Below the pieces are notes generated by a model. That model did not search any database. It saw only the letters and a list, made by a program, of their open reading frames with translations, and was not told where the DNA came from. Shown in pieces: positions 3,725 to 50,000 of a DNA stretch of 64,000 bases; the first letter of the stretch is position 1; every line of letters starts with the position of its first letter. The position numbers were made by a program, and so were the translations under genes. Origin of the DNA: a virus (taxonomy: Duplodnaviria; Heunggongvirae; Uroviricota; Caudoviricetes); IMG/VR virus record IMGVR_UViG_3300045988_147489, positions 20,848-84,847 of that record; one strand, written 5' to 3'.

Positions 3725-4074
3725 TTTCCCGCGATGAATCCGGGACAAGGACCGTCTCAATAGATCTCGGATTCTATTTCAGTCGTGTAGTTGCTCACTA
3801 CGCCGTGTCGCCATTAGAGCTACTGAACGTTCCTCTCACGATGTTCTGGATGCTCAGTCGCAATATAGACCGTCTGCGTGCGGAAGAGGATGTCCGCAAC
3901 TTACAAGTCGCTCGTGCGTCCCAGGCGGATGGCGAGGCTGTGAAGGCGTTCATGGAGGGTTTGCAACTCAGGATTGGAAGACCAGTCGTAACAGATAAAG
4001 TCTACGATCCAAGCCAGGATAAGGCAGACCCTGACGCCAAAGAGCAACTGATGCAAATATTTGGCAGAGGATGA
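3688..4074 (+). CDS. gpT-like extension, probably expressed as a G-T fusion by -1 frameshift
   Basis: -1 frame relative to the G-like ORF is open from 3688 to the TGA at 4072-4074; A-rich GAAAAAG at 3695-3701 lies in the overlap. Confidence 0.5.
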   Translation, partial: RKRKSGWRRGKVISRDESGTRTVSIDLGFYFSRVVAHYAVSPLELLNVPLTMFWMLSRNIDRLRAEEDVRNLQVARASQADGEAVKAFMEGLQLRIGRPVVTDKVYDPSQDKADPDAKEQLMQIFGRG

Positions 4075-4081
4075 CAAGGGA

Positions 4082-11155: not shown

Positions 11156-11171
11156 GGGAAGTTTTTTGAAC

Positions 11172-17100: not shown

Positions 17101-20100
17101 CGAGCACCTCGCAGAGCGTTACTGATCTGCGAAACAGCCTCGAACAGACCAACGCTAATCTGGCGAATAAGGCAGATGCACAGGCGCTGTCTACGCTGCA
17201 AAATACGGTCTCCAAGCAGGGGGATACGATTTCCAGCCAGGGTAACAGCATCACGAACCTGAATAACACCCTGACCGCTGCCAGAAACTCCGGTGACAAC
17301 CTGATCCCGAACTACGATTTCCTGCAGGGTGCAACTGCGTGGGATATCCAGTATCCGGCGGGCGTCGCTTTCGGCAACTTCGGTGATGGTAAGGCTGGGG
17401 TTAAACTGAACCGGACGACCACTACCAGCCCAGGCATCTTCTCCAACAACAACAAGCCGCTGCCGCTTAATGGTCAGCGCAAATATCGTGTTGTGGTTAA
17501 AGCCAAGGGCGTGTCCGGGGCGATGAACATGTTGATCCGGCGCCAGAACAAAATCGGCCAGACCGACAGCAATTATGAAGATAAAAACGTCACACTCACC
17601 AGTGAGTGGCAGACCATTACCTGGGAAACTGGGCTTACTGCCTCTAACGCTGATGGTCAGAACTTTAAGCTTTATGCGCACCCGGCTAATGCCGAAATCT
17701 GGGTTGATACCTTTAAGGTCTTTGATATCACGGATGAGGTGAAGATCAAGGCTAATAGCGATGCGCTGTCTACGTTGTCGAGCACGGTGACACAGCAGGG
17801 TGACAAGATCACCAGCCAGGGCAACAGCATCACTAAGTTGACCAATGACCTCGAGGCCGCTGACGCAAACATCGCGAAAAAGGCCGATCAGTCGGCAGTC
17901 ACTACGCTGACAGGTCGGGTAGAGAAGACGGAGTCCGGTCTGACGGCGGCGAACAGCAACATTACGTCGCTTAGCAGCTCTCTGAGCCAGCAATCCAAAC
18001 GCGGCGCTAATCTGCTTCCTGATGGCACTTTTGAAAGCTACGCGGTTGGCCATAATCTATCAAATAATCGCGTTATCGTTACCACTGATGACTCTCACGG
18101 TGGAAATAAGTGCATCCGTGTGACGCGTCCGAACGACTACAACGCCAACGCAACAGATAACAGCGATAACCATATTTTTAGCGGATTTCAGGTTCGCGAT
18201 AACGCAGTGTTCTACATGGAGTGCTGGGTTAAGCTGGATGCCAATAGCACAGCCATGGCCGAGAACACGCAGATCTCTATCGGTTTGTCGCTCCAGTATC
18301 AGGATAACTCGTGGCAGTGGCCGGCAGTAACTAAAGCTGCGAAAGATCTGTCTACAGCTCAATGGACGAAGGTTTCTGGTTACCTGAAATCAACGAAGAG
18401 CGGTATTAAGCAGGCAATGGTGAGGATTTCTATTCCTAACGTTAGCAGCGTTAAGGCGGGAAACTCATTCCTTATTGATGACCTGGTCATTACCGAAGTA
18501 ACTGATGCCTACAATGCGCAAAGTACAGCAGATGCTAACGCCAATGCGATTTCGACACTGGACTCGACCGTTTCCCAACAGGGCGACCAGATCACCAGTC
18601 AGGGTAACAGCATCACCAAACTGACAAATGACCTGGCAACGACCAATAACAACGTCAGTAAAAAAGCGGATCAGAGCGCTTTAAGCGTGTTGTCCGGGCG
18701 CGTCGATCAAACAGAATCGGGCTTATCCTCTGCGAATAGCAGTATCACTGCGCTTAATTCATCTGTACGCGCAGGGAATGCGACAAGTGGCGATTTGATT
18801 AGCAACCCGACATTTGACCCAGAGTTTAGTCAGATGGGCTTCACTGTGGTTCCCAGCTCGTCTGAGGGCGTGCCAGCCAATTGCCCATACGCTTATGTTG
18901 CACGCATTGCGGCTCGCGACCATCACCCAAATTTTGCTGCTATTCCGGCGACATTGGGGGATGTCTATGAAATGTCTGCTCTCGTCGCGTGTGGCACTGG
19001 CTCCGCTGATTTCAACCTGTATCTCGGAACCGCAACACGGCCAAGCGGCAGCGTGGGCGCGCCTCTGTCATCTGGCGGCAACCGCAAGGCGTCGGCCACA
19101 TGGCAGCGAGTAACCTGGCGTTTCAAAATTACTCAGGGGATTGTCGATCGCGGCTTCTTCCGTCCATTCCTGCAAATCAACCAGTCCAGCCCGTTCGGCA
19201 CCGTCTGGTATGTGACCGACTGGCATCTGCGGAACGTAACCGACTCCTCCAAAGTTCAGGATTCTCTCGATGCTACGGCGAAAGCGGTTGATTCGCTGAC
19301 CTCTACGGTAAATCAGCAGGGGGAGAATATCTCCAGCATTGGTACACGTACTACCAATCTTGAGAATAATTTGAGAACAACAAATGCAAACGTTGCTCAA
19401 AAAGCGGACGCCAATGCTCTGACGGCACTGACCAACCGTGTTACCCAGACCGAAAAAGACATTAACTCAACGAGTTCTTCTGTCACGAATCTGAACAACA
19501 AGGTTGATGCAATTTCTGTCGGCGGTACAAACCTGATCAAGAACTCCGGCGATATGACCGGCTGGTCGAACGTTGTCAGCGATACGTATCGTGGTAACGC
19601 GGTAATTGGCGCAACTGTAAAAGCCGGCTCCGGTTACAGGGATTTGCGGGAAATCACGCTTGAGTCGCCGGTCGATGCAGGTGAGTACGTTTACAGCTTC
19701 TATGCGAAAGGCGGTGTTGCTGGCCAGATTATGACGGCGTTCTTCTACAATCCGAACACTACAACGTCTATCGAGACCAGCCAGGGTGCGAAGGGTAACA
19801 ACAGTGATGGCCGTGCGCAGTTCACGCTGACCACTTCATGGGCCCGCTATTGGGTTAAGTGGAAACAGACACCTACCACGAGTACCAAGCGCCTGATTCT
19901 GTGTCGTATCGAGAGCAATACCTCCAAAGACCAGACGGTGTACATCAACAGTCCGAAGTTTGAGGTAGGTAACGTTGTTTCCGACTGGAACGAGTCTCCG
20001 TCTGATAGTGCCAGTGCGTCGGCTGTGGACTCGCTGACAACGAAAGTGAATCAGCAGGGCACTTCCATTAGCTCTATCGGAAATCGCACCACATCGTTGG

Positions 20101-23100
20101 AAAACGGGTTATCGACAGCTCAAAACAACATTGCCAAGAAGGCTGATGCTTCTGCATTGCAGGATCTCCGGAACACGGTGACATCTCAGGGTGATGATTT
20201 AACCGCGGCGAACAGCAGCATTACCAGCCTGCATGCCTCGATGAACCGTCGCACTGTGTTTACTGTCACTGCACGGGGTAATGGCAACAGCGTTACCCAT
20301 GGGGTGTTTGATGAAAGCGGCAAGAATCTGTTTACCCCTGGTCGCAGCTGGGCGCTGGTCACTTTTGCAAAACACAGCGACGGATCAACGGTGATTGCGA
20401 CCTCCAAAACATACGATGTCTTTGGCAGCGCGAATAATGGCGCCACGATGTCGGCTGATATCGAGGCACTGGCCAGTGGGACTTACGTTTGCGTCCTGAC
20501 ATTCGATGAGCCAACTGGCAACCGAGGTAAGGTGTTGTCTGCCCTGGAATCTCTTGGTGGCACTTCCGAAGTCGTTAACTCTCTGCCGTATCGTGGCGCC
20601 TACATTCTCCTTGGCCGCAAAGGTATGAAGCCGGGCGATGGTCTGGAACTGCGTGCGCCAACCGGTGGCGACGGCACCGCCCACATTTCGACCTCAGTCG
20701 AGTTTGTGAACGGGGTAATGATGGGGCTGGGCGCCGCTGGTGGTGTGATGATGAAGGCTGATGCGAACGCATCTGCAATTACCACGCTCCAGAATACAGT
20801 GAAGACCCAAGGGGATAATATTGACTCCCTGAGCTCCTCGACAACAGCGCTGGAAAACAGCCTTGCGTCCAGTAACGCCAGCGTGGATGCAGCAAGCCAG
20901 ATCCCCGGTAACCTGATCGTAAACCCGTCTTTTGAGCGTGGTACGGAGGGCTACACTGGTTGGAGCGGTATTGCCACGGTGGCAACGCTGCAGGTTCCAC
21001 ATCTTGGCACCAAAGCCGCCAAACTAGCGGCGGGTGGTTCTGCAGGCGTGGGCCAGAAGATCTCCTTCAAAAAGGATCGGTCGTACAAAATTGGTATTTG
21101 GGCAAAGCAGGACCCTAATACCACCATTCAGTCGACCGACAACACAAAATTCCGTGTGGCTGACGGTACTGGCCTGATTGCAAGTAAGGTTTATGGTCCG
21201 TTCACCTCGAACTGGCAGGAGGTGTCATGGACATGGAAGGCGACAAAGGATGTCCTTGCTGACGTTCAGTTCACTGCTTTCTTGTCAGCCGGCGCGATGT
21301 ACTTTGATGATTTTTACGTCGTCGATGTGACCGACTCAGTTGAAACTCAGGCGAACTCGAGTGCGATCACGAAGCTCGATAGTCGTGTGACCAAGACAGA
21401 GAATGACATCACCAGCCAGGGCAGCCAGGTTACGCAACTTAAGAATGACCTTGCTACCACAAACACAAATGTTTCGAAGAAAGCGGATGCAGCTGCGTTA
21501 ACGGCATTAACGAACCGCGTCACGCAGAATGAGAAAGAAATTGGAACCCAGAGCAGCCAGACAACTTCGCTCAAAAACTCTTTGAGCACTGTTCAGGCAA
21601 TGGGAAGCAACCCGTGGTTTGATGGTTCTCTGGAGACGTACTCCGAAAACCAGCAGATCAGCGGCTCGCGCGCGGTCGTCGTCAGCTCTCAGAAACGAAG
21701 CGGAACGAAGTCGTTGCGTGTTTCCCGCGGCGCCGGTGAGGGCGGAAACAGCGATAAAACCATCGGTAAGTGGATTGCTCTGCGTGAAAATGCGGTATTC
21801 CGCATTGAACTCTGGGCGATGATGCCGGCAGATCAGTCGCCATCATCCGGGTGGTCAACGCTCGTTGGTTTGCAGACCCAAAACGCTGCCAACAACAATA
21901 ACTGGCCGACGGCAATCACTATCAATGAAGCCGCATTGGGTGCAAGAGGCGCATGGAAGAAATTCACCGGTACGCTCCGTGTAGCCGCTGGCCACACTCG
22001 CGGCGCATTTTGGGTATCTACCCGCGGCACAACTGGCACTGGTACACCGGGGTATGATCTGTATATCGATGACGTTGTTGTCACCGATATCACCGACGCA
22101 AAAGAGGCTCAAGATTCGGCTAATTCGAACGCATCCGCGCTCACCAGCCTTACCTCACGTGTTACCAATGTAGAAGGGCAGGTGACATCCCAGGCGTCTC
22201 AGCTGTCCTCTTTGACGTCCCAGGTGAATGATGCGTCTTCGAAGGTTGATCAGATGGCGCAAACCATCACCAACAACGAGAAAACGCAGTCGTCGCTGAA
22301 TACCAGCTTGCAGTCGCAAATTGATGCGCAGGCATCGGCAAACATCAAGAACCAGACGGAGTTGAATAACGCCACCACTTCGATGGCGGCAATTAAATCA
22401 ACTCAGCAGACTCAGGCCACAACGATTAGTGCACTGTCTCAGCAGCAAACGAATTTAACGGCCCAGGTAGGAGGCCAGTCAGCCGAGCTGCAGGAGCTGA
22501 AGAAAACGGTTGTTGAAAACGGCAACGTTAACAGCACCTGGATGGTCAAAATGGAAACCAACAGCAACGGTAAAAAGTATGCTGCTGGTATAGCTTTAGG
22601 TATCGATGGCAAAAATTTGCAGAGCCAGTTTCTGGTTCAGACTGATCGCTTCGGCTTAATCAACACCTCTAACGGGAATACGACTACACCTTTCGTTATC
22701 GAAAATGGCGTTGCGTATATTAATGCCGCTGTCATTAAAGATGGCTCGATCACCAATGCGAAAATTGGAGGCGAAATCCGTTCTGACAATTTCGTTAATG
22801 GTTCAAATGGCTGGAGAATTGGAAAAGACGGTAGTTCACAGTTCAACAATGCGATATTCAGAGGTCATATTGAAGCGCGCAGTGGTACGTTCAAAGGAAC
22901 CCTGGAAGCTCAAAACTTTATTGGTGATATCGCTGTAGCTCGGCGTTATGCGGGTTTATCGTTCCGTCGTAACAACACCGTACAGCGTGATGGTCGTTAC
23001 CAGAACCGCGGATACGGTATGACTATTGTGCTAAGTTGCACCCTGATATATCAGGTTACTGGGGGGAATGAGGATCGTAACGGTTATATTGTTGAAATGA

Positions 23101-23330
23101 CATTTAACGTTGGCGGTCAGGAGGCAACTCGCAGTTTCCCGATCAACCCGCGAATGAATATGGGCTCCTACTCGATGGAGTTTCGTTTTGCAGCGGATAT
23201 TCCAGGCAACTATGACAACGTCCCGTTCTTTGTAAGAGCACGTGGTCGGGATGCTACTTGGAACTACCAGTGTTATGTAGAAAACATCACTGCCACTGCT
23301 TTCCGTACAAACAGCAACTCATTCAGCTAA
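11172..23330 (+). CDS. giant host-specificity / central tail fibre protein (gpJ-like N-terminus with repeat-expanded extension)
   Basis: single ORF of about 4050 aa; N-terminal about 800 aa has gpJ-like layout including an FN3-like segment; rest is repeated modules; TTG at 11166 is an alternative start. Confidence 0.85.
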   Translation: MDQFKKKRLPLLIAGAGGKKSSGSSRTPVEADDTVNSRAMASILDLLGEGVVGGLINGAKSIFIDGVALENEDGSFNYSGVTWDFRDGSQDQSPMPGFDFVETPKAVNTQLKTTNAVTVAIDNDDADRVRVIMKFPSLRSIDKKTGDTNGTSVQFKFQLANGNGSFYDVIATGESSSDVKLTAKKTGVYYRSYEIQLPKPGRAYKVRVLRLSADSNDQYLFNDTWVDSIGEIVDTPMNYPNSVLVGLKVNSEQFGSSMPSRSYLIRGLKIRVPSNYDENTNTYNGVWDGTFKLLSSSNPAWILFDLLTNARYGLGKFVSESMIDLGQLYQIGRYCDEEVDDGFGGKEKRFAINTQITSRQDAYRLIQDIAGAFRGMVFWAGGMVNIMQDSPSDPVMLFTNANVKDGLFTYKGSARKDRPSVALITYNNKQDGYKQNVEYVEDQEAMARYGERKTEAVAFGCTSRGQAHRVGLWLLYTARMESDMITFTAGLDASFLMPGETVLIQNKYRAGKRNSGRIVSFTKNSITLDAPVSLKKSGSFIRIINQEGKIVERDINETGDNITKVTFKTALATAEQPVANGVWTITEPDLVPMRARVVAIAQGETPGSFDITVVQNNASKYQAIDNGAALVPENTTVLDPTYSKPSNLVISEGTYLSSPGNLSVKLMLAWEGKSPEYWVSWRRSDEGNVSNWQSARATEEQYEIVNVAENGRYDFQLYSVSFGGKKSEIITAVYQVKGTMTPPGAPTSLTAVGDYRNVVLNWVNPDSVDLAQINVYASKTNKLDTATLIAQAATTTFTHAGLGDNETWYYWIRAVNKRGMVGQPNSNLGTEATTRDVLSFLKDKITSSELGKELLDEIDSKATQEAVDNAIGEVQNSVNESIQQVENDLAQTSSEIKAQVDSVNQSLKEDIKTVNQTIVDNIDAVNQTINTNISNVNSQIEAAKQSIKDGDAALSQEIKNAQSSLTTSLSQTSKDLTAAIQKETNDRIADVNDAAKQAADQLLSAKNELKTSIDSLSEVVTSGDENLARQISQIAAGTGEQFDSLKIWYFDQDAEGWTEDDNGYTPMSVTSDGWLKANNPTSTCRSPNGLTIDAHAYRFIKMRIKKVGNPTWNAKMFWIGADETGWNAGRSVVINEPEYDDKGIAILTLHDLEWRDSTTIRRFRFDFTSGQDTDNYLLFDWIAVGRPTPGAGMAALQEEQQARANADTAEAQARSTLAAQIRGSSESGNLDDIRSGLIYQEKNARITADAAEASARESLQTEFNRNKASVAEELHTLSTEQASQASKITGLQTSLGQKADASAVQTISQKVEEQGNTLKSQGAALSTLDNRVGSVESGVSANSKAITGLQSTVTQQDKTLSSQSESITTLNNSLSDIQSDTDTAKSNPSNLLVNASFERDLAGWSAGNSVSNVIKASAPHSGSKILVCAAGTVQITQSVSVVEGRTYKLSSFVRCTTDAVISSPGNNKLRIGAATLLKEIPIRPENLPKDETWKEVSDTWKATLTGKVDVSIMSSLKTGSQYFDDVGFVDVTDALAIEANASATNALTSRVSSVEGTITSQGQQITSMQNSIKNKADASAVTNLANRVTAAENQISSQSQSITSLSNSLDNANADADASKAIIGNMLKNNSFERGFEGWEYVGWTLLEAQNPKSGKYIIQAGKLASGGDSGCNQTIELQAGKTYRIGAWVRKSADFAINNAGNNKISLRNADLTPIKDIPITGAGLSTNWALISGEYTPAKTASVVVSLRASVASGYMYLDDVFCVDVSNEKAIDATSNALSTLNSTVTQQGKDITSNSNSITSLSNQMVNGRQNMWVRSVYNVQLANNTTEPTFSDINGKAPISIDEVPDAAKLDFASAGSYVIAHYKAFVKVNADTTITMAPGSRVFDDTGAVYVNGVRVAFGNASWNTVSFDLKAGWSTVEFLVNQWTGQAYINLGFKLSEKVAQLNSALGMNALSNAISAVTSNVSTVGDRVTSTSQSVTDLRNSLEQTNANLANKADAQALSTLQNTVSKQGDTISSQGNSITNLNNTLTAARNSGDNLIPNYDFLQGATAWDIQYPAGVAFGNFGDGKAGVKLNRTTTTSPGIFSNNNKPLPLNGQRKYRVVVKAKGVSGAMNMLIRRQNKIGQTDSNYEDKNVTLTSEWQTITWETGLTASNADGQNFKLYAHPANAEIWVDTFKVFDITDEVKIKANSDALSTLSSTVTQQGDKITSQGNSITKLTNDLEAADANIAKKADQSAVTTLTGRVEKTESGLTAANSNITSLSSSLSQQSKRGANLLPDGTFESYAVGHNLSNNRVIVTTDDSHGGNKCIRVTRPNDYNANATDNSDNHIFSGFQVRDNAVFYMECWVKLDANSTAMAENTQISIGLSLQYQDNSWQWPAVTKAAKDLSTAQWTKVSGYLKSTKSGIKQAMVRISIPNVSSVKAGNSFLIDDLVITEVTDAYNAQSTADANANAISTLDSTVSQQGDQITSQGNSITKLTNDLATTNNNVSKKADQSALSVLSGRVDQTESGLSSANSSITALNSSVRAGNATSGDLISNPTFDPEFSQMGFTVVPSSSEGVPANCPYAYVARIAARDHHPNFAAIPATLGDVYEMSALVACGTGSADFNLYLGTATRPSGSVGAPLSSGGNRKASATWQRVTWRFKITQGIVDRGFFRPFLQINQSSPFGTVWYVTDWHLRNVTDSSKVQDSLDATAKAVDSLTSTVNQQGENISSIGTRTTNLENNLRTTNANVAQKADANALTALTNRVTQTEKDINSTSSSVTNLNNKVDAISVGGTNLIKNSGDMTGWSNVVSDTYRGNAVIGATVKAGSGYRDLREITLESPVDAGEYVYSFYAKGGVAGQIMTAFFYNPNTTTSIETSQGAKGNNSDGRAQFTLTTSWARYWVKWKQTPTTSTKRLILCRIESNTSKDQTVYINSPKFEVGNVVSDWNESPSDSASASAVDSLTTKVNQQGTSISSIGNRTTSLENGLSTAQNNIAKKADASALQDLRNTVTSQGDDLTAANSSITSLHASMNRRTVFTVTARGNGNSVTHGVFDESGKNLFTPGRSWALVTFAKHSDGSTVIATSKTYDVFGSANNGATMSADIEALASGTYVCVLTFDEPTGNRGKVLSALESLGGTSEVVNSLPYRGAYILLGRKGMKPGDGLELRAPTGGDGTAHISTSVEFVNGVMMGLGAAGGVMMKADANASAITTLQNTVKTQGDNIDSLSSSTTALENSLASSNASVDAASQIPGNLIVNPSFERGTEGYTGWSGIATVATLQVPHLGTKAAKLAAGGSAGVGQKISFKKDRSYKIGIWAKQDPNTTIQSTDNTKFRVADGTGLIASKVYGPFTSNWQEVSWTWKATKDVLADVQFTAFLSAGAMYFDDFYVVDVTDSVETQANSSAITKLDSRVTKTENDITSQGSQVTQLKNDLATTNTNVSKKADAAALTALTNRVTQNEKEIGTQSSQTTSLKNSLSTVQAMGSNPWFDGSLETYSENQQISGSRAVVVSSQKRSGTKSLRVSRGAGEGGNSDKTIGKWIALRENAVFRIELWAMMPADQSPSSGWSTLVGLQTQNAANNNNWPTAITINEAALGARGAWKKFTGTLRVAAGHTRGAFWVSTRGTTGTGTPGYDLYIDDVVVTDITDAKEAQDSANSNASALTSLTSRVTNVEGQVTSQASQLSSLTSQVNDASSKVDQMAQTITNNEKTQSSLNTSLQSQIDAQASANIKNQTELNNATTSMAAIKSTQQTQATTISALSQQQTNLTAQVGGQSAELQELKKTVVENGNVNSTWMVKMETNSNGKKYAAGIALGIDGKNLQSQFLVQTDRFGLINTSNGNTTTPFVIENGVAYINAAVIKDGSITNAKIGGEIRSDNFVNGSNGWRIGKDGSSQFNNAIFRGHIEARSGTFKGTLEAQNFIGDIAVARRYAGLSFRRNNTVQRDGRYQNRGYGMTIVLSCTLIYQVTGGNEDRNGYIVEMTFNVGGQEATRSFPINPRMNMGSYSMEFRFAADIPGNYDNVPFFVRARGRDATWNYQCYVENITATAFRTNSNSFS
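13680..22520 (+). repeat. internal tandem modules within the J gene (about 11 copies of coiled-coil segment plus CBM-like beta-sandwich domain)
   Basis: recurrent peptide blocks such as STVTQQGDKITSQGNSITKLTNDL...KKADQSA and domain starts such as NASFERDLAGW, NNSFERGFEGW, NPSFERGTEGYTGW; matching DNA repeats e.g. CAGGGTAACAGCATCAC at about 17235, 17818, 18603; coordinates approximate. Confidence 0.7.
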
Positions 23331-36324: not shown

Positions 36325-36523
36325 ACGGGAGAAGGAAACGCTTCATGAAATCAGTAAGTGGCCGGAGTTCCCTGAGTACTGGAAGCCTAAAACGCGAGCT
36401 AAGTTAGAGCGTTTAGGGTTGGTTGCAAACGTTTCTGAAACGAAGTGTTCGGCCAACTACCAGTTAACTGATAAAGGGAAAGTATTGCTACAGCAATTAG
36501 TAGAATCAGGAGTGTTAAAATGA
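36308..36523 (+). CDS. hypothetical small protein
   Basis: 71-aa ORF, start overlaps previous gene. Confidence 0.35.
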   Translation: MIVLSKREKETLHEISKWPEFPEYWKPKTRAKLERLGLVANVSETKCSANYQLTDKGKVLLQQLVESGVLK

Positions 36524-36672
36524 TTCCATACATCTCATTAGCTTTTATGGGTGGCTTCCTTATCGGCTTCGGCATCTGTCGTGATTTAATTAAGCAGGAA
36601 CTTAAAACCAAAACACTGTGCATCGGAAAGCGTGTGTATCGGGTAGTTCATGAAACAAAGGTTAAAAAATGA
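36520..36672 (+). CDS. small membrane protein (50 aa), paralogue 2
   Basis: not in ORF track; translation MIPYISLAFMGGFLIGFGICRDLIKQELKTKTLCIGKRVYRVVHETKVKK; same TM plus G(K/R)R.YR.V pattern as paralogue 1. Confidence 0.4.
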   Translation: MIPYISLAFMGGFLIGFGICRDLIKQELKTKTLCIGKRVYRVVHETKVKK

Positions 36673-37471: not shown

Positions 37472-37737
37472 AAGACAGGATTGTTGTGTAGGTTTAACCA
37501 CTGTTGCCATTGGTGCCTGTTTTCACAACAAATGATTCCATACATCACATTGTATAAATTACAAAGTAGGTGCTGTCCTCAGAAACATCATCTACTTAAA
37601 GATTTTGCCTTCTACTATTGAGCGAAGTCGAAAGCGTCTGGCACTAACGAAAAGTGCAAGTAGCGGTGCGTTTCCTGGCAGAAACTAAACCGTCGCGATT
37701 GGCACTGTTGAGTAATAAATACTGGCAGTGCTGAATT

Positions 37738-37812
37738 GATGGTGTAGCTCAGCGGTAGAGCAGTTGGCTGTTAACCAACTGGTCGGTGGTTCGAATCCAC
37801 CCACCATCGCCA
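37738..37812 (+). tRNA. tRNA-Asn (anticodon GTT)
   Basis: cloverleaf folded by hand: 7-bp acceptor GATGGTG/CACCATC, anticodon loop CTGTTAA, T-loop GGTTCGAATCC, CCA end. Confidence 0.8.
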
Positions 37813-37817
37813 ATTTA

Positions 37818-37904
37818 GGGGAGTTAGTCCGTAGAGGTAGCGGTGTAGACTGTAAATCTACTGTCATGGCGACTCGGGTGGTTCGACTCCATCACTCCCC
37901 ACCA
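37818..37904 (+). tRNA. tRNA-Tyr (anticodon GTA), long variable arm
   Basis: acceptor GGGGAGT/ACTCCCC, anticodon stem-loop GTAGA-CTGTAAA-TCTAC, T-loop GGTTCGACTCC, CCA end. Confidence 0.75.
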
Positions 37905-37908
37905 AATT

Positions 37909-37984
37909 GCCGGTTTAGCTCAGTTGGTAGAGCGCCTGCCTTGTAAGCAGGATGTCAGCGGTTCGAGTCCGTTAACCGGCACCA
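37909..37984 (+). tRNA. tRNA-Thr (anticodon TGT)
   Basis: acceptor GCCGGTT/AACCGGC, D-arm GCTCAGTTGGTAGAGC, anticodon loop CTTGTAA, T-loop, CCA end. Confidence 0.8.
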
Positions 37985-37992
37985 ACATAATA

Positions 37993-38073
37993 TTGAGAAC
38001 ATTGGCGTAACGGGTTCATATCCCAATTTATGAATATAATGTTGCGTTGCAGCGTGACAACCAGTGTTCTCAA
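37993..38073. repeat. long-range inverted repeat C immediately 3' of tRNA-Thr
   Basis: TTGAGAACATTGG ... CCAGTGTTCTCAA (1 mismatch). Confidence 0.5.
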
Positions 38074-38278
38074 CATTGTGGTGAATGCACAGGCTGATGT
38101 GCGACGTAGAAGCAAGCGGATGAACTGCCTGAAGGCCGCTAACGTAGGCAATGCCGGAGATCAGCACCGGCCATCACAATTTGGCTCTCTTGCAACAGCA
38201 TAACGCTGAAATACGTCCAACCTGGTGCGGTCTGATCACCCGCCGTTAGCTCCACGAAACGGAGCACACAACACAATT

Positions 38279-38365
38279 GGAGAGTAGGGAGCATGGTGCT
38301 CAAGCGGTCTTGAAAACCGTCCCATTGTGCAAACGATGATGGTTCGATTCCATTACTCTCCGCCA
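38279..38365 (+). tRNA. tRNA-Ser (anticodon TGA), long variable arm
   Basis: acceptor GGAGAGT/ACTCTCC, anticodon stem-loop GCGGT-CTTGAAA-ACCGT, T-loop GGTTCGATTCC, CCA end. Confidence 0.65.
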
Positions 38366-38367
38366 GA

Positions 38368-38445
38368 CACAGCGTTGAGCGGTTTGGCCTTTTAATCAAC
38401 CAGATTAAGACTCCGCTAACATAAACCAGACCGCTCAACGCTGTG
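38368..38445. repeat. long-range inverted repeat D immediately 3' of tRNA-Ser (16-bp perfect arms)
   Basis: CACAGCGTTGAGCGGT ... ACCGCTCAACGCTGTG; arm sequence resembles repeat B. Confidence 0.6.
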
Positions 38446-38499
38446 ATAGACAATTACGGCAGACGTTCTTAACCATAGCTTGCTAACATCCTAGCAACA

Positions 38500-38542
38500 C
38501 TTTTTTCAGCGCAAAATTCAAAGGGGCTTCGGCCCCTTTTTT
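38500..38542 (+). terminator. terminator-like element; also copy 1 of a direct repeat flanking the lipoprotein gene
   Basis: TTTTCAGCGCAAAATTCAAAGGGGCTTCGGCCCCTTTTTT. Confidence 0.55.
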
Positions 38543-38658
38543 GATTTGTTGACACTTAGTTATATTCACGTATCGTTTTATCGCTTTGATCCGAGGCAGC
38601 GTTAGACTGCCTTCATGTTCCTGATTAGATCGCAGCAGTTAAACATGGAGACAAATTA

Positions 38659-39213
38659 ATGAAGAAGTGCCATCTCAATATTTTCGCATCTCTAATAATT
38701 GCGTTAACACTAACAGGGTGTAACGAATCTGAAATAGATGAATTAACGTTAATAGGCAAAGATAAAAGTGAACTTGAACAAAATTATAAAGCCCAATTCA
38801 AGAAGCTAACACAAAATGTTGAAGTGTTTATTCTTCAAGATAAAAATAGTCCGACTGAAAAAGAACCGCATACGAATGGCAACCTGATCGACGGAAAAGT
38901 CGAAATGTCATTAACCAGTAATGTTGGTAAGTATACATTCATCCAGATAAGTGAAATGCTGACAAAGGAGTACGGAAAACCCGTTGCTACAAAAGATCGT
39001 GTTTTTAACAGAGAAGCAGTATCTGGCATGGACTGTATTGAAACTAAAACTTGTGGAGCTGGTAAATATTATGAAATCTTTCGAGGGAAGGATAGATTGA
39101 TTATGGTGTCAAACGGTGCCGGTCTTTTACACGAAAAGGAAGGTGTAACACTACTCACCATCACCGATAAACAATTTAAATTTTCTCGTTTAGAAGAAGA
39201 TAAAATAAAATAA
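38659..39213 (+). CDS. putative lipoprotein (AT-rich cargo gene)
   Basis: signal peptide ending in lipobox LTGC; visibly AT-rich codon usage unlike neighbours. Confidence 0.5.
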   Translation: MKKCHLNIFASLIIALTLTGCNESEIDELTLIGKDKSELEQNYKAQFKKLTQNVEVFILQDKNSPTEKEPHTNGNLIDGKVEMSLTSNVGKYTFIQISEMLTKEYGKPVATKDRVFNREAVSGMDCIETKTCGAGKYYEIFRGKDRLIMVSNGAGLLHEKEGVTLLTITDKQFKFSRLEEDKIK

Positions 39214-39420
39214 TGACAGGGGCGTATACGCCCCTATCTAAAATTTGACATTAAACATATATTGCATCTGGTATCAGCAATTTTTGTGCGCTATGTAAGT
39301 CCTTACCTGCAATCAGTCTCATAAATATCGGATTTTACGTAGCGTACCATCGTTACAGCAAGCATCAAATTATTCACTGACATTTATGCGCTGAAAACAG
39401 CGTTACTTACCGTAAAATAA

Positions 39421-39455
39421 CAATTTTCAGCGCAAAATTTAAAGAGGCTTCGAAT
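39421..39455 (+). repeat. copy 2 of direct repeat (degenerate version of 38500-38530)
   Basis: CAATTTTCAGCGCAAAATTTAAAGAGGCTTCGAAT versus TTTTTTCAGCGCAAAATTCAAAGGGGCTTCGGCC. Confidence 0.5.
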
Positions 39456-39464
39456 CTGCACAAC

Positions 39465-40793
39465 CTATTGTGCGTACTCGCCCAATTTTAATGTTTCACG
39501 CTTATATTCATCAACTATCTCACATGATTTAATATAGATATGGCACAATAGGTTATCACTATCATCATTATCGTTTATTGCCATAAGTGCCAACTTTTTC
39601 TCATATTCATCGATCGCATCACTCAACTGATCACCTGTAATTACATCTGACTCACTCGAGAAATATAACTGCCCAAGATTTACCGCATTTTTTCCAGTTT
39701 TTCTTTGCTCTATGTAATTTTTAATCATATCCTTCACATCCTTTTCACTACTCAGTATTTCACTTTCGAAATGGACATGCTCTGAAATCGACGCGACTCT
39801 GCAACCGATCAAACGATGAATATAGTCATCAATAGACGTAACACTATCATTAGCTTTTTTTAGTGCTTCATCAAAAATGCTCTTTACCTCATTTGGCAAA
39901 TTTTTAAAATAATCATCAATTAAACCAGATAATGGTGTTTGGTAGTTCATTAATACCGATGAAGCAACTTGCGGACGACGAGCCACCCAGATTTCTTTGA
40001 CTTCAACTTGAGAATAATATTCCTTAATCACGTTCCAAAAGTATTTTAACATCTTGGTTTTAAATATTTTATCAAATCTATCCTTTATAAATAGCTCTAC
40101 TTCAGGCATGCTTGAATAAGCATCATCAAAGAATATTTCATCTTTGAAAAAATCATATTTATTTAATAAAGCATACAGTTTTTTTGAATCCAGCGGTTCA
40201 CGAGAATCGATGTCCAATCCAAAAACTGCAATAACCAACTTCATTTGCGGTGGTATTTTTCCACTCAATTGAATAATATATTCCATTTTTTCATCAAAAC
40301 AATTTCCATCTATGTAAAATCGGTTATCTACATAGACTAATATATTGGTAATATGTTTTATGTACTGAATAACCTCATGCTTTCTTACCAATGGATAAAA
40401 AAACGAATGCATTTCATTTTTATTAAATTGTTTTTTTGTCTGTTCAATGATTGGTATGACATTATTGTACAACTCATCATGCTGATTTAATAAAGTGTCA
40501 AACCATTCTTTGAAAGAATTTTTTCTCATCTCAATCAATGAATCGGTAGTTATCCTAACGGCCTCCAGTGCTGCCTTTGCACTTTTTCTTGCTTCATAGG
40601 CGTTCCACGCTGTTGCACAAAAAGCCGCTGTCGTTATAAAACTACTCAATACAGCAATTTGGTCTGTAACCTTCCAATCTTGAAATGGCTCAAGTAGTAA
40701 ACCTAAAAACAAAATTATTATGGAAAACATTAGAATTGCAACAGAAATAAAAACAGGCATGTATGCTCTCGTACTTACCATTGTTAGTTGCAT
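39465..40793 (-). CDS. 442-aa membrane protein of unknown function (two N-terminal TM helices plus large cytoplasmic domain); candidate accessory/defence gene
   Basis: long ORF on opposite strand to surrounding genes; strongly AT-rich; no catalytic motif recognised. Confidence 0.5.
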   Translation of the reverse strand: MQLTMVSTRAYMPVFISVAILMFSIIILFLGLLLEPFQDWKVTDQIAVLSSFITTAAFCATAWNAYEARKSAKAALEAVRITTDSLIEMRKNSFKEWFDTLLNQHDELYNNVIPIIEQTKKQFNKNEMHSFFYPLVRKHEVIQYIKHITNILVYVDNRFYIDGNCFDEKMEYIIQLSGKIPPQMKLVIAVFGLDIDSREPLDSKKLYALLNKYDFFKDEIFFDDAYSSMPEVELFIKDRFDKIFKTKMLKYFWNVIKEYYSQVEVKEIWVARRPQVASSVLMNYQTPLSGLIDDYFKNLPNEVKSIFDEALKKANDSVTSIDDYIHRLIGCRVASISEHVHFESEILSSEKDVKDMIKNYIEQRKTGKNAVNLGQLYFSSESDVITGDQLSDAIDEYEKKLALMAINDNDDSDNLLCHIYIKSCEIVDEYKRETLKLGEYAQ

Positions 40794-40932
40794 TAAATAT
40801 TAACTAAATTAAGTTGTGATTAACAGGCAAGTTTACGATGTATTGCAGACATTAAATAGGTTTTTACTTACCTATCTTTTATAGTAATATTTATTTTCTG
40901 GTTAAGTAACACATAATTATTATGAGGTAAAC

Positions 40933-41178
40933 ATGACTATCGTTATCTACGGACGAGATAACTGCTCATATTGCAAACGTGCGGTCGAGCTGGCGAAACA
41001 ACTAAAGGGACACGGCTATGGTGATTATGAGTACATCGACATCACCACTGCCGGTATCGATAAGGAAAAACTTAGCGAAATTGTTGGCAAACCGGTAGAG
41101 ACTATCCCCCAGGTACTGATCGATGGCCAACCGATTGGCGGATACACAGAACTGGCTGCATACGTCACCACTCTCTAA
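40933..41178 (+). CDS. glutaredoxin-like protein
   Basis: N-terminal CSYC active-site motif in thioredoxin-fold context (VIYGRDNCSYCKRA); 81 aa. Confidence 0.7.
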   Translation: MTIVIYGRDNCSYCKRAVELAKQLKGHGYGDYEYIDITTAGIDKEKLSEIVGKPVETIPQVLIDGQPIGGYTELAAYVTTL

Positions 41179-41208: not shown

Positions 41209-41388
41209 CCCACCAAACTCACGCTTGGTTCCCTTAAAATTCAAAAAACAACGGCTAAATGATTCCATACCTACTATGTATGGAATCATTACTGAAAATG
41301 AGTTACTTTTACTCTTGATCCTATAAGAATCTATGCCTAATATACTGTTTACTTATACAGTGAATCGGCGTAACTCGGTGATTGTCAT

Positions 41389-42492
41389 ATGAAAAATAGC
41401 TTTGACAGAGCACGCGCTGCGGAGAACACCTCAAAAGAGGCGATTGAGTATCTCGAAAGAGCATCTCAAATGCAGGCCGTTATGATCTCGCAGGTCAGCA
41501 ATGACATGAGATTCTCGGACGCATTCATGTTATTCACTCGCTTATCTCTGCTGATAACAAGACGTCGGCCAGAGATCGCTGTTCATTGTATTTTGATACA
41601 TGTTTTGCCGCACATTGCCGATGTAAAAGTAAGTGACATTAATAGGTTCATGGTGAACCAACTGGTCAACCCACTAATACTGGATGGCAAAATTGTTATG
41701 GGCCGCCGCGTTTTCTCTCTGATGAAGCAGTTCCTTAGCTGGTGCGCCTTCCAGGGGATGATAGACGTGTCACCGTTAAACGATATGTCACTAAACAAAG
41801 TTGCCGGTGGCGCAAAGCCTACACCTCGCGAGCGGAAGCTGACCGACGCAGAGGTATGGGTGTTCTGGAATATATGGGACTACTTCAATGTGTGCGCTGG
41901 TACAAAATGGGCGGCCAGGCTGTGTCTTGTATCCGCAAGACGACCTGACGAAGTACTGCGGGCTAAAAAAAGTGAGTTCAATCTTAAGCGTGGGGTTTGG
42001 AATCAAGGCAAGAGGAACAAATCTGCCCGTGAGCATTCTCTGCCTTTAAGCTCATTAATGCGCACTTGTATTGAAGAGTTGTTCGAATATGGTAAAGACA
42101 GCCAGTGGCTCGTGCCTTCGAATAAAAAAATCGGGAAAGACCTTCCTATGTCTAAAGTGGCAATAGCCCAGGCATTACGTCGTATTCTGGAACGACCAGA
42201 ACTGATGGAGCTTGAGCCATTTACACCCCGAGATTTGCGCCGTACTGCGCGTAGTTACTTCCCAGCATTAGGCATAAGCCAGGAGGTATCACGTAAAATC
42301 ATGAACCACAGTCTTGAGGGGATAGATCGGGTCTACGACCGGCACGATTATATGGACGAGATGCGAGACGCCTTAGAAAGTTTCTCGACGTACATCGCAT
42401 CAATCGTAGAGCAACCGGATTTAGACGAAATTGACCACAAATTTAAGGGAGATCGTCTATCAACAGAGCTTATTCGTGTAAATTTTTCATAG
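41389..42492 (+). CDS. tyrosine recombinase / phage integrase family protein
   Basis: C-terminal catalytic-domain pattern with conserved Arg/His/Tyr (LRRTARSYF, HSLEGIDRVYDRHDY). Confidence 0.75.
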   Translation: MKNSFDRARAAENTSKEAIEYLERASQMQAVMISQVSNDMRFSDAFMLFTRLSLLITRRRPEIAVHCILIHVLPHIADVKVSDINRFMVNQLVNPLILDGKIVMGRRVFSLMKQFLSWCAFQGMIDVSPLNDMSLNKVAGGAKPTPRERKLTDAEVWVFWNIWDYFNVCAGTKWAARLCLVSARRPDEVLRAKKSEFNLKRGVWNQGKRNKSAREHSLPLSSLMRTCIEELFEYGKDSQWLVPSNKKIGKDLPMSKVAIAQALRRILERPELMELEPFTPRDLRRTARSYFPALGISQEVSRKIMNHSLEGIDRVYDRHDYMDEMRDALESFSTYIASIVEQPDLDEIDHKFKGDRLSTELIRVNFS

Positions 42493-47080: not shown

Positions 47081-50000
47081 CTTCTCACTTGGGGAGTCGG
47101 CTTTAAAAGCAGAAAACGCGGTGAAGATTGCCAGAGAAGCTGGCTACACCGCTGTAATTTCAGCAGATAGCATGAATATTGCGAGCGTTATTCCACTACA
47201 ACGTGCCGCTGGTGACGACATGGCGGTTATTTGTGGTGTGAAACTAAACATTGTTGATGATCCCACATACGAGCACCGGGTTAAACTTGCTAAAGAATCT
47301 ATGAGATGTATGGAATCATTAGAGCGGGGACGTAACTACTCGTTTACCGCTCTAATTAAAAATGAGCAAGGATATCGCGACATCTGCGAACTAATGACGG
47401 TGGCCAACACACGAGAACAGTTCTACTTTGTACCGCGTCTCTCGCTCGAACAGTTGGTTTCTACATATGCCAAAGGCAACATCATCCTGCTCACTTCCGA
47501 CATCGATAGCGTGTTCCAACGCAACGATTTTGCAAAAATCACAAGCTCACTGATTACAGCGGGCGGGAAAGACAACTTCTATAGCGTGGTTTATCCGCAC
47601 CCTACCCCATTCTACGACCAGATTAACGTCCGGGCGATGAAAGTCGCCAGCGCATTGAAAATAGAGCCAGTGGCGTTCTATCCCGCTTATTACGAATCGA
47701 TCGACGATGCAGACATTAAAGACATTGCGCACATGGTTACGAACAACATAAAAATCGACCAGCCGCATCGTCTGCGTATCCCCCACCAGCGAGATAACGC
47801 CATCAATGGTCGTCGCCATCTCCTTGAGGCGCTTAAAGCCTTCTCCATTCGCATGGATGTGCCGGTAACAGCTGCAATGGCCTCAACAACGCAGGATACC
47901 ATTATCGATGCCTGCACATGGCGCTGGCATGAATTGCCACCAGCACTGCCCAAGATGGCAGACGACGAACCTGCAACGCTGATGAAACTGGCTGTTGCAG
48001 GGCTGCGTAAACGTCTTACCACAAAAGAGTTTGGATACACACCACCTGCTTCTGAGAACAGGGTTTATGTTGAGCGGCTAAAGTACGAAATGGACACGCT
48101 GACTCGCCTGGGATTCTGTGGTTACTTCCTGATGGTGCGCGATCTGATGAATCATAGTCGTGAAACTGGCATTCCCGTTGGGCCTGGTCGTGGTTCCTCT
48201 GCCGGTTCTCTGGTGGCGTGGTGCATAGGCATAACCAACGTCGACCCAATCCGTCACGGTCTTCTGTTTGAGCGTTTCATCAACCCTGAGCGTCTCGACT
48301 TGCCGGATGCGGACTTGGACTTCAGCCAGGCACGTCGCCATGAGGTGATCGAGTATCTGAATGAACGCTACGGCGAAGATTACGTTGCAGGCATTCCGAA
48401 CTTCACCTACCTGGGCGCAGCCTCTGCACTACGTGACACCGCTCGTATTTATGGTGTGGAGTCCGCAGATATGGCGGTATCAAAAGAACTGAAGAACGTC
48501 GAGGATGATAGCCTTCCATTGGAAGAGCTGCGCGAACAACTGGCAAGTCTCGACAAATACGCAACAAAATATCCTGATGCATTCAATGCAGCCTGCAAGT
48601 TACAAAGCCTTATGCGTGGCTTTGGTAGACATGCGGCAGGGATGATCGTAGCAGGTGTTCCTCTGACAGAACGTACACCGGTTGAGCGCCGTGGTGACGC
48701 GCGTTGTATCGCATTTGACAAGCGTTACTGCGAGGCTATGGGCCTAATTAAGCTGGACGTACTTGGTCTGGCAACTCTCGATTTGCTCGATAGTGCAAAA
48801 CGCTACATAAAAGAGAACACAGGTGAAGATATCAATCTTGATGCCATTTCTCTTGAAGATCGCAAGGTGCTGGATGGTTTTGCTGCTGGGTACACTCAAG
48901 GTGTTTTCCAGCTTGAATCAGGCCCAATGCGCAAGCTGCTTAAAGATTTAGGTGGTGGAATTGAGCCAATGAGCTTTAAAACGGTTGTTGCTACGACTGC
49001 GCTCTTCCGGCCGGGGCCAATTCAGTCAGGCATGTTGGATGACTATGTTTCTGTAGCCAAAGGCTTTATGACGCCGGAATCATTACACCCCGTTCTTGAT
49101 GAACTTACCGCAGAAACAAATGGCGTGATTCTCTATCAGGAACAGACGATGAACGCGACTCGATTGCTTGCTGGCTTCACAATGGCTGAAGCTGACGGCG
49201 TTCGTAAAGCGATCGGCAAAAAAGACATGGAAAAAATGAAGAGCATGGGCGAGAAGTTCATCGTTCAGGCTCAAGCTGGCTGGATAGACGTTGAGCTGGA
49301 AGATGGCACTACACAGCGCATTCACCGTGCGGAACATTTTAAATGCGAAGACGGAACTCTGAAAACTGTCGAAGAGGCACTTGAGTACGGCGCAAAACTA
49401 CCTATAAACGCAGTACGCGTTACAGCGTCACATCCAGGGCTATCAGAGATGAAAGCGAAGGAGATCTGGACCGCATTCGAAAAGAATGGTGCCTACCAGT
49501 TCAACAAATCACACTCTGTTGCTTACTCCTTAATCAGTTATCAATCTATGTGGTTGAAAATTCATTATCCCGCGGAGTTCTTCGCTGCTGCTCTCACTAT
49601 TCTTGGCGAAGATAAACACCAGGGGCTGGTTAAAGATGCGCTGACCTATGGTATTCGCGTATTGCCACCAGACGTTAACGTGTCATCTAACCGAATCGAG
49701 ATCCGCACGCTTGAAGATGGCAGCCAGGTGCTGTATGCGCCCTTCTCTGCTGTGAAAGGGTGTTCTGAGAATGGCTGCCAAGCCATCATGAGAGCGCGAG
49801 AAAAAGTTGGCGGCAAATTCGAGTCACTGGCGCAATTCGAAGAAGCTGTCGAGAAACGTGCCTGTAATAGTCGAGTGCGCGAATCGCTGCAAAAAGTAGG
49901 GGCGTTTGCATCCATCGAGCCAGGCAGTCTGCCAGCAACTGATCCAGAGCGCCTACGCGACCAGGCTGAATTGATGGGAAACCTTGTCATAGACGCAGTT

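Follow-up and report, generated by a model that had tools for sequence, protein, structure and literature searches.

Direct repeats of a tRNA-operon terminator around a lipoprotein gene of an SSU5-like phage-plasmid: a probable scar of two accessory modules joined in tandem

Introduction

A predicted lipoprotein gene stands between two direct copies of a short terminator-like sequence in the 64,000-nt stretch of viral DNA that we analysed (the window), which raises the question of whether the repeats are the ends of a mobile cassette or the remains of some other event. An earlier note on this DNA had read the arrangement as the footprint of a cassette insertion, or of a duplication, by recombination at a terminator. 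Of this reading, the recombination at a terminator has held up, but not the idea that the repeats bound a mobile cassette. Instead, we find that each copy is probably the original left edge of an accessory module, and that two such modules, alternatives to each other in relatives, became joined in tandem, a reading to which we assign a probability of roughly 0.78. On this reading, the lipoprotein locus is an ordinary scar of phage genome mosaicism and not a new mobile element.

Results

The window comes from a phage-plasmid of E. coli that is SSU5-like and ∼110 kb in size. Between positions 38450 and 39500, it is 99.9–100% identical to plasmids NZ_AP025215.1, MF554642.1 and NZ_CP083480.1, and a match at this level was found in 5 plasmids in a search of 5,426 complete E. 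coli genomes. The region is 96–100% identical to E. coli plasmids of 108–113 kb, the backbone is 96–99% identical to that of phages CMS-2020a, Cyrano and PhiR41_1, and genes for ParA, a helicase, a primase and a ligase lie inside the window. Judged from its sequence, the host element has the properties of an SSU5-like phage-plasmid, that is, a size of ∼110 kb, a non-integrated state and a backbone in common with named members of the group; this assignment was made by way of the plasmids and the three phages, and the group name is taken from the literature (PMC7969092, PMC3999498, 10.1101/2025.09.12.675607).

In order, the neighbourhood contains DNA ligase, small ORFs, a block of tRNA genes, the repeat region, glutaredoxin, a tyrosine recombinase and an HTH regulator. 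The tRNA genes (Asn-GTT, Tyr-GTA, Thr-TGT and Ser-TGA; 37738..38365, plus strand; identified by ARAGORN and Rfam) are conserved in relatives and form the left anchor of a variable slot; the Rfam search found no RNA families besides these tRNAs, and its weak matches were noise. Just past tRNA-Ser lies a 20-bp hairpin with a variable loop (38368..38445, plus strand; inverted repeat I6), in which 2 of the 20 pairs are changed on both sides and still paired in an alignment of 8 variants, and which belongs to a conserved trailer that ends with the first copy of the repeat. The right anchor is the glutaredoxin (GrxA) gene (40933..41178, plus strand; Pfam PF00462), at the start of which (∼40922–40940) homology with relatives is back. 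The backbone flanks of the relatives are 97–99% identical, but the slot itself (38544–40921) differs. We also sought the parent lineage from the flank identities, and these were uninformative, as all backbones are 97–99% identical.

The direct repeat of ∼30 nt reported in the earlier note is real. Copy 1 (38503–38531, plus strand; TTTTCAGCGCAAAATTCAAAGGGGCTTCG) and copy 2 (39424–39452, plus strand; TTTTCAGCGCAAAATTTAAAGAGGCTTCG) match at 27 of 29 bases in alignment and start 921 nt apart; their likeness ends after base 29, with GCC in copy 1 versus AAT in copy 2. As claimed, they flank the lipoprotein gene, one on either side of the 184-aa ORF at 38659–39213, and the second copy does run from 39424, but the position given for the first was off by one, the 32-mer lying at 38503–38534. 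When up to 3 mismatches are allowed, the two copies are the sole matches in the 64 kb, and the number expected from 100 dinucleotide-preserving shuffles is 0.00. The similarity thus exceeds the A/T-rich background, so that chance resemblance, which the same note had named as a ground for dropping its claim, did not apply. Two copies were present in 3 of the 201 plasmids that hold the repeat sequence, and all 3 have the window's own arrangement.

Hairpins with a UUCG loop and G+C-rich stems do recur independently, as with GGGGCTTCGGCCCC in Citrobacter-type relatives, and two A/T-rich terminator-like sequences might in principle have come to resemble each other by chance or convergence. We consider the probability of this negligible, since the match lies mainly in the leader, TTTTCAGCGCAAAATT, which is outside the hairpin and is the same in both copies (16/16), zero chance matches are expected, and the homology of single-copy relatives runs from copy 2 into the adjacent gene. 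The Citrobacter-type relatives have a second GGGGCTTCGGCCCC hairpin ∼480 nt downstream; we rejected this as a duplication of the repeat, because it is a generic hairpin from which the leader is absent.

Copy 1 comprises an A/T-rich leader followed by the rising stem arm and UUCG loop of the terminator of the tRNA operon, with the arm and loop making up its final 12 nt. The complete predicted terminator, AAAGGGGC-UUCG-GCCCCUUU plus a T-run (38520..38543, plus strand; terminator scan and fold), has the stem GGGGC at 38523–38527, the loop TTCG, the stem GCCCC at 38532–38536 and then T6 to 38542, and folds at −15.6 kcal/mol (z −3.1). A G+C-rich stem-loop followed by a U-run is what defines an intrinsic (Rho-independent) terminator, and copy 1 is accordingly part of a terminator whose activity is predicted. 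This terminator closes a conserved 178-nt trailer behind tRNA-Ser, and the repeat starts 138 nt past the end of that tRNA gene at 38365. The sequence of copy 1 is unchanged in E. coli and Klebsiella relatives and has 2 differences in 29 bases in the Salmonella/Citrobacter type. In Klebsiella relatives, where backbone identity is only 71–74%, the ∼50 nt surrounding copy 1 still match at 100%.

Both plasmids (232 in PLSDB) and complete E. coli genomes (204) match the window through the terminator, and the match ends at ∼38543–38552 in all of these except ∼30 plasmids with a lipoprotein module. Because the homology of relatives ends here and resumes at the glutaredoxin gene, the terminator is the left edge of a variable accessory slot. 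Among the 40-odd loci that we fetched, at least 8 unrelated sequences or module types follow the T-run, starting within 1–2 nt of one position past it. These modules include two diverged lipoprotein alleles and several minus-strand genes, as well as a plus-strand hypothetical gene in phage Cyrano and an AbiH abortive-infection gene in Klebsiella relatives.

The lipoprotein gene (38659..39213, plus strand) encodes 184 aa, matches PHROG 15156 and has a signal peptide with a lipobox, LTGC, at residues 18–21. The N-terminus of the product reads MKKCHLNIFASLIIALTLTG-C, and L18, T19, G20 and C21 are invariant in 13 homologues; set against the lipobox consensus (a signal peptide ending [LVI][ASTVI][GAS]C), the product has the sequence of a bacterial lipoprotein, with predicted lipidation. 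It has no Pfam or PADLOC match, its AlphaFold model has a mean pLDDT of 50, and its family is small, with 16 clusters that are enterobacterial throughout. The G+C content of the gene is 35.0%, versus 43–52% across most of the window (backbone ∼46%).

The module may bring its own signals. A promoter-like site (TTGACA, 16 nt, TATCGT; 38549..38576, plus strand), the putative promoter of the gene, agrees with the consensus at 10 of 12 positions, and TTGAC and TATxGT are retained in a 77%-diverged allele (TTGACT ... TATGGT) in which the surrounding 30 nt are only ∼55% identical. Beginning 2 nt past the lipoprotein stop codon is a G+C-rich hairpin (39215..39238; terminator scan and folds), situated between the lipoprotein gene and a convergent gene of 431 aa. 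It folds at −15.0 kcal/mol (z −3.9) on the plus strand and at −19.6 kcal/mol (z −4.9) on the minus strand, and the minus-strand scan gives 10 pairs and then ATTATTTTAT, with the U-rich tail better on the minus strand. The hairpin is thus likely to be a two-way terminator, judging by these folds.

The lipoprotein gene is also found with a single copy of the repeat. In ∼20 E. coli-group plasmids, it lies right behind the terminator with one repeat copy, and relatives of the Salmonella, Citrobacter and Kluyvera type likewise have it behind the terminator with one copy; the order in these single-copy relatives is terminator, promoter, lipoprotein and then plus-strand genes. Because single-copy relatives carry the gene, the succession of terminator and lipoprotein gene is an old arrangement, and the gene needs no second copy. 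Formally, this is what the earlier note had itself named as evidence against a cassette bounded by the repeats, namely relatives that carry the gene without them. A lipoprotein homologue also occurs beside an insertion-sequence transposase in contigs without phage-plasmid backbone genes.

These relatives bear directly on whether the repeats could be attL/attR-like sites. The lipoprotein cassette would then be a small integrative element that the neighbouring tyrosine recombinase (41389–42492; Pfam PF00589), or another site-specific system, had placed in the terminator leader as in an integron-like slot. An att core is usually formed by the 3′ end of a tRNA gene, with no difference between the two sides, and the window does resemble tRNA-associated islands and prophages in having direct repeats beside a tRNA block, a tyrosine recombinase gene 2 kb off and a 16-nt stretch identical between the copies; the shared starting point of the modules past the T-run would also suit such a site. 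However, the window's repeat lies past tRNA-Ser and not within it, is not the 3′ end of a tRNA gene, is imperfect (2/29 mismatches), and is present in two copies in one lineage only out of ∼200, whereas other relatives hold the lipoprotein gene at the same place with one copy. No recombinase or transposase gene was found between the two copies, and the repeat core is nowhere near the recombinase gene. That gene was found in all relatives, whatever module they hold, from which we infer that it is a conserved backbone gene; its PF00589 match is a generic one to the phage-integrase family, which cannot separate IntI from other tyrosine recombinases. The sharp boundary at the T-run is explained equally well if selection keeps the terminator and the adjacent gene, the alleles of which are homologous, diverges fast. 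For these reasons, we consider attL/attR-like sites very unlikely.

Two related classes were also rejected. An integrase-mediated island does not fit a segment with which the recombinase does not travel and which shows no recurrent duplication of an att site (3/201, in one arrangement). An integron gene cassette does not fit either, as there is no attC-like imperfect palindrome pair at the 3′ end of the cassette; other relatives hold single, unrelated modules in the slot, with no arrays.

The gene to the right of copy 2 (39465..40760, minus strand) is 431 aa long in the RefSeq annotation, has N-terminal membrane helices and 33% GC, and lies in an ORF that reaches 40793 (442 aa); we obtained no Pfam, PADLOC or fold match for it. 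In most E. coli relatives, the terminator directly adjoins the stop codon of a minus-strand gene, 12–16 nt off. The minus-strand genes of 410, 420, 431 and 432 aa are homologues with 30–54% amino-acid identity, and all four have N-terminal membrane helices and 31–38% G+C. By these comparisons, the minus-strand gene is an old, fast-diverging, hypervariable resident of the slot.

Alignment of the right-hand side with the relatives connects copy 2 to this gene. With 39205–40935 as a blastn query, ∼75 single-copy plasmids match at 60–80% identity, and in most of the 37 such matches listed the alignment starts exactly at 39424 and reaches ∼1.2 kb into the gene, with ∼67% identity. Base by base, copy 2 aligns with the repeat of the relatives; the window then lacks 14 nt, which read GCCCCTTTTTTGTT in relatives, and the two are collinear from there on, with the stop codon 12 nt beyond the gap in the window and in single-copy relatives alike. 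The missing 14 nt are the falling stem arm and the T-run, and because these are absent, copy 2 cannot terminate. The terminator scan found no terminator at 39424–39464, and the plus-strand fold gives no hairpin there; copy 2 lacks what makes an intrinsic terminator. The description of the repeat as terminator-like thus suits copy 1, which overlaps the terminator, but not copy 2, which is without the falling arm and T-run. On the strength of these BLAST and base-level alignments, we take copy 2, with its 27 of 29 bases, to be what is left of an ancestral junction at which the terminator met the minus-strand gene.

Copy 2 carries two transitions relative to copy 1. Its C-to-T change is also present in a natural leader allele that is joined to another allele of the minus-strand gene (locus L007), which is a hint that copy 2 was brought in by its own module and is not the product of decay after the join.

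The earlier note had proposed looking for an empty site with a single copy of the repeat. Single-copy relatives in which the repeat adjoins a homologue of the minus-strand gene do exist, but the homologue has just ∼67% DNA identity. We found no 431-aa allele (≥90% identity) without the lipoprotein gene among the relatives, so the 'empty site' is represented only by a 67%-identical homologue; in all contexts found for the 431-aa allele, the lipoprotein gene is 252 nt away. The native upstream context combined with the repeat and the flank of the 431-aa gene gave 0 matches in viral and metagenome contigs, and a pattern specific to copy 2 gave 0 matches in metagenomes. A scan of species-representative genomes returned one Kluyvera contig only, of the single-copy lipoprotein type.

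The same alignment bears on a further possibility, that a transposon or insertion sequence carrying the lipoprotein gene left a target-site duplication, as direct repeats around a single low-G+C gene might suggest. Known target-site duplications are identical repeats of 2–14 bp, lengths that the imperfect 29-nt repeat far exceeds. Furthermore, there is no transposase, the sequence just inside the copies has no terminal inverted repeats, and homology extends from the right copy into the neighbouring gene, with a 14-nt deletion. In all collections searched, no unrelated site had the 892-nt unit with such inverted repeats at its ends. We reject a transposon or insertion sequence on these grounds and regard target-site duplication as extremely improbable.

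The two modules are separated by sequence found with this arrangement only. The spacer between the hairpin and the inverted copy described below (39239..39383) was found only in plasmids with the window's arrangement, and it had no relative elsewhere in plasmids, E. coli genomes, phages or the other fetched loci. For the interval 39214–39423 as a whole, we found no source outside that arrangement in plasmids, E. coli genomes or phages, no protein remnant of the neighbouring genes of relatives and, with the repeat excluded, no further homology, direct or inverted, to the sequence upstream of copy 1 above that of shuffles.

A short inverse copy of the repeat had been noted near 39389, and it too is real, and longer than claimed. 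This inverted partial third copy (39384..39407, minus strand; 24 nt; inverted repeat I2) corresponds to 38493–38516 at 20 of 24 bases, with an exact 11-mer, and scores 16, compared with a maximum of 15 in 2000 shuffles and of 12 in 592 other chunks of the window. It holds ∼10 nt of the native upstream context of copy 1 that are absent from copy 2, and together with copy 2 it forms a quasi-palindrome, GCGCTGAAAA-N26-TTTTCAGCGC. A single simple crossover does not predict this third copy, which may have come from a fold-back or template switch at the junction or from an earlier rearrangement.

The quasi-palindrome raises the possibility that copy 2 was kept for a function, forming with the inverted copy a long 3′ UTR hairpin, or a protein-binding palindrome, that stabilises or regulates the transcript of the 431-aa gene. 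This would be a later use of a relic and is compatible with an origin by a tandem join. The inverted copy is non-random, and the minus-strand RNA of 39375–39470 folds at −26.3 kcal/mol (z −3.3), a stability that none of 200 shuffles reached; because a U-run is absent after this hairpin, it is not an intrinsic terminator. The 14-mer TTTTCAGCGCAAAA (≤2 mismatches) occurs at only three places in the window, which are copies 1 and 2 and the inverted copy, but a count of 3 is also reached by 9 of 100 shuffles and thus has no significance across the window. Moreover, the hairpin is found in one sequence class only, and relatives manage with a plain terminator at this place. We consider a retained function unlikely.

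A further reading is that the terminator and its leader are a dedicated cassette-exchange site, at which element-encoded recombination makes nucleotide-precise swaps, with the duplicated and inverted copies as a trapped intermediate. Such a site would account for the near-identical starting points of the at least 8 module types past the T-run and for the ∼50 nt kept at 100% in Klebsiella relatives, and the simple join does leave the inverted copy unaccounted for. Nevertheless, we consider this reading highly improbable.

That modules in the slot do recombine is apparent from two loci, L033 and L034, which are clean chimeras: they are ∼100% identical to the other lipoprotein allele up to ∼38940 and 100% identical to the window from ∼38950 through the glutaredoxin gene. 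All sequences with the window's arrangement agree at every position in the 3′ half of the lipoprotein gene, in the spacer and in copy 2, with L033 and L034 differing in the 5′ half of the module only. The switch at ∼38940–38950 places the crossover inside the lipoprotein gene, and as natural chimeras these loci establish that the modules still recombine in nature.

Discussion

A tandem join of two modules, each with its native left flank, accounts for the two copies as follows. The slot of SSU5-like elements between the tRNA-operon terminator and the glutaredoxin gene would hold interchangeable modules, each starting right past the T-run. In one old arrangement, the terminator would be followed by the 3′ end of the hypervariable minus-strand membrane-protein gene, and in another by the promoter and the lipoprotein gene. 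A single non-homologous join at 39423/39424 would then have placed the lipoprotein module before a terminator leader that was still tied to the minus-strand gene. The partners would have been related, co-resident elements, the first supplying terminator, lipoprotein gene, hairpin and spacer and the second supplying the terminator leader and minus-strand gene, with homologous backbone on both outer sides of the join. Two equivalent routes fit the sequence alike: an unequal crossover, and a 921-nt segment that was circularised and then inserted in the Campbell manner. The homology relationships, the 14-nt gap, the uniqueness of the duplication and the continuing recombination between these modules are direct observations; the order of the events, the type of crossover and the activity of terminator and promoter we infer.

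Following the join, copy 1 would have kept a working terminator, and copy 2, which lost or already lacked the 14 nt, would be a dead relic. The hairpin at 39215–39238 now probably ends both convergent transcripts. Two copies occur only in the window's lineage because no other lineage combines the two modules. In principle, the lipoprotein gene could be lost through the 29-nt direct repeats, and the two arrangements could thus interconvert.

Boundaries of this kind belong to the modular theory of phage evolution, reportedly due to Susskind and Botstein, and boundary sequences are said to have been described in comparisons of HK620 with lambdoid phages (Clark et al. 2001). The locus resembles such mosaic boundaries, or 'linker' sequences, in that relatives change over to unrelated modules at a short conserved non-coding segment (terminator plus leader), and in that natural chimeras document homologous exchange. 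It differs from them in that two modules are stacked in the window rather than swapped, leaving a duplicated boundary segment.

On its sequence, the lipoprotein gene looks like a moron, a type of gene known from lambdoid and other temperate phages and reportedly described in Juhala et al. 2000 (J Mol Biol) and Hendrix et al. 2000 (Trends Microbiol). It is a single accessory gene, present in some close relatives and absent from others, between collinear conserved genes; its base composition is deviant (35% versus ∼46% G+C in the backbone); and the promoter-like site (10/12) and the hairpin at 39215–39238 may give it a promoter and a terminator of its own. In a departure from the moron definition, the gene in the window is accompanied by a duplicated piece of the neighbouring terminator, and its expression in the lysogen is putative.

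Cor (phi80, N15), Llp (T5) and Bor (lambda) are phage-encoded outer-membrane lipoproteins that modify the lysogen. The window's gene is like these in specifying a small add-on lipoprotein from a temperate element, with Asn after the lipobox Cys and no Asp at +2, but it has no sequence relationship to them: its PHROG match to Cor covers the signal peptide only (E = 0.04), and tblastn found no match to it in 50,697 phage records. We also rejected Plp of P1 as a homologue, as there was no tblastn match and, in P1, the plp gene covers the tRNA spacer on the opposite strand.

Events of this kind are known, and the exchange of genes between phage-plasmids is well documented (PMC10879196, PMC7969092). 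The locus offers a clear and datable case of accessory-gene stacking in such elements, and it leaves the understanding of phage genome mosaicism unchanged. The slot behind the tRNA-operon terminator is a hotspot for accessory and defence genes in SSU5-like elements, which helps to annotate elements that are clinically common. Transposons with bla-TEM have been reported as inserted near tRNA loci of SSU5-type phage-plasmids (bioRxiv 10.1101/2025.09.12.675607).

Variable genes beside the tRNA terminator

The variable slot between the tRNA-block terminator and the glutaredoxin gene carries, beside the terminator, a gene for a hypervariable membrane-anchored protein (39465-40760, minus strand), and the equivalent position is likewise occupied in the three comparison loci L007, L010 and L011. 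The four alleles of this family encode proteins of 410-432 amino acids that share a mutual identity of only 30-54%, in contrast to the backbones that carry them, which are 97-99% identical; the G+C content of the genes is 31-38%. Searches of Pfam, PADLOC and protein folds with the hypervariable protein gave no match. In Klebsiella relatives, an AbiH-family gene sits at the equivalent slot position, and because it lies at this same place, it hints that the hypervariable family might have a role in defence or exclusion.

We found natural chimeras of the lipoprotein gene in two Logan assemblies, SRR29183797 (locus L033, 3835-4800) and SRR29445363 (locus L034). In both, the 3' part is the lipoprotein allele of the window and the 5' part is a 77%-diverged allele, with the crossover at the equivalent of window positions ∼38930-38960, where the two alleles resemble each other most.

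In the Citrobacter-type relatives L006 and L044, a second GGGGCTTCGGCCCC hairpin with a UUCG loop (3105-3126 and 2590-2611, respectively) lies ∼480 nt past the tRNA terminator and is followed by a 242-amino-acid gene. We considered a duplication of the direct repeat as its source, but this is disfavoured, and the hairpin is probably an independent terminator, because the leader of the repeat is absent.

The tRNA block and its trailer

The tRNA block is common to P1, P7, D6 and the SSU5-like elements. Its long-arm tRNA (38279-38365) is called by ARAGORN as tRNA-Ser with anticodon UGA, while the best Rfam model is tRNA-Sec, at 44.8 bits, slightly below the gathering score of 47 for that model; the gene also falls below the gathering threshold of the general Rfam tRNA model. 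A comparable caveat is present in the phage D6 record.

Directly 3' of the tRNA-Ser is a 20-bp hairpin (38368-38445), the loop of which is ∼40-50 nt and highly variable. Two of its pairs are altered on both sides yet still paired in Salmonella- and Citrobacter-type relatives, changes that probably represent one single lineage event. Possibly, the 178-nt trailer between the tRNA-Ser and the terminator forms a structured RNA over its entire length.

In phage P1, the counterpart of window positions 37985-38267 (L039, NC_005856.1 69472-70041) is annotated on the minus strand with the genes plp (‘putative lipoprotein’) and upl, and the DNA under these genes is 84% identical to the non-coding tRNA-Thr/tRNA-Ser spacer of the window. 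P1 Plp was rejected as a relative of the window's lipoprotein, to which it is unrelated.

A dispersed 13-mer and other features

The exact 13-mer AATGATTCCATAC occurs five times in the window, compared to an expected 0.14: at 36519-36531, 37531-37543 and 41258-41270, and on the minus strand at 41278-41290 and 47308-47320. Two copies build a near-perfect palindrome (41258-41290), which precedes the tyrosine recombinase gene by ∼100 nt and is also close to the helix-turn-helix (HTH) repressor gene. High-identity homology with relatives restarts exactly at 41256-41257. AATGATTCCATAC is a candidate dispersed operator or recombinase site; as an operator, it would parallel the C1 operators of P1, which are dispersed, both single and paired.

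Elsewhere, the structural part of the element contains a pair of very long ORFs on the plus strand, one of 4,054 amino acids (11166-23330) and the other of 1,513 (4061-8602).
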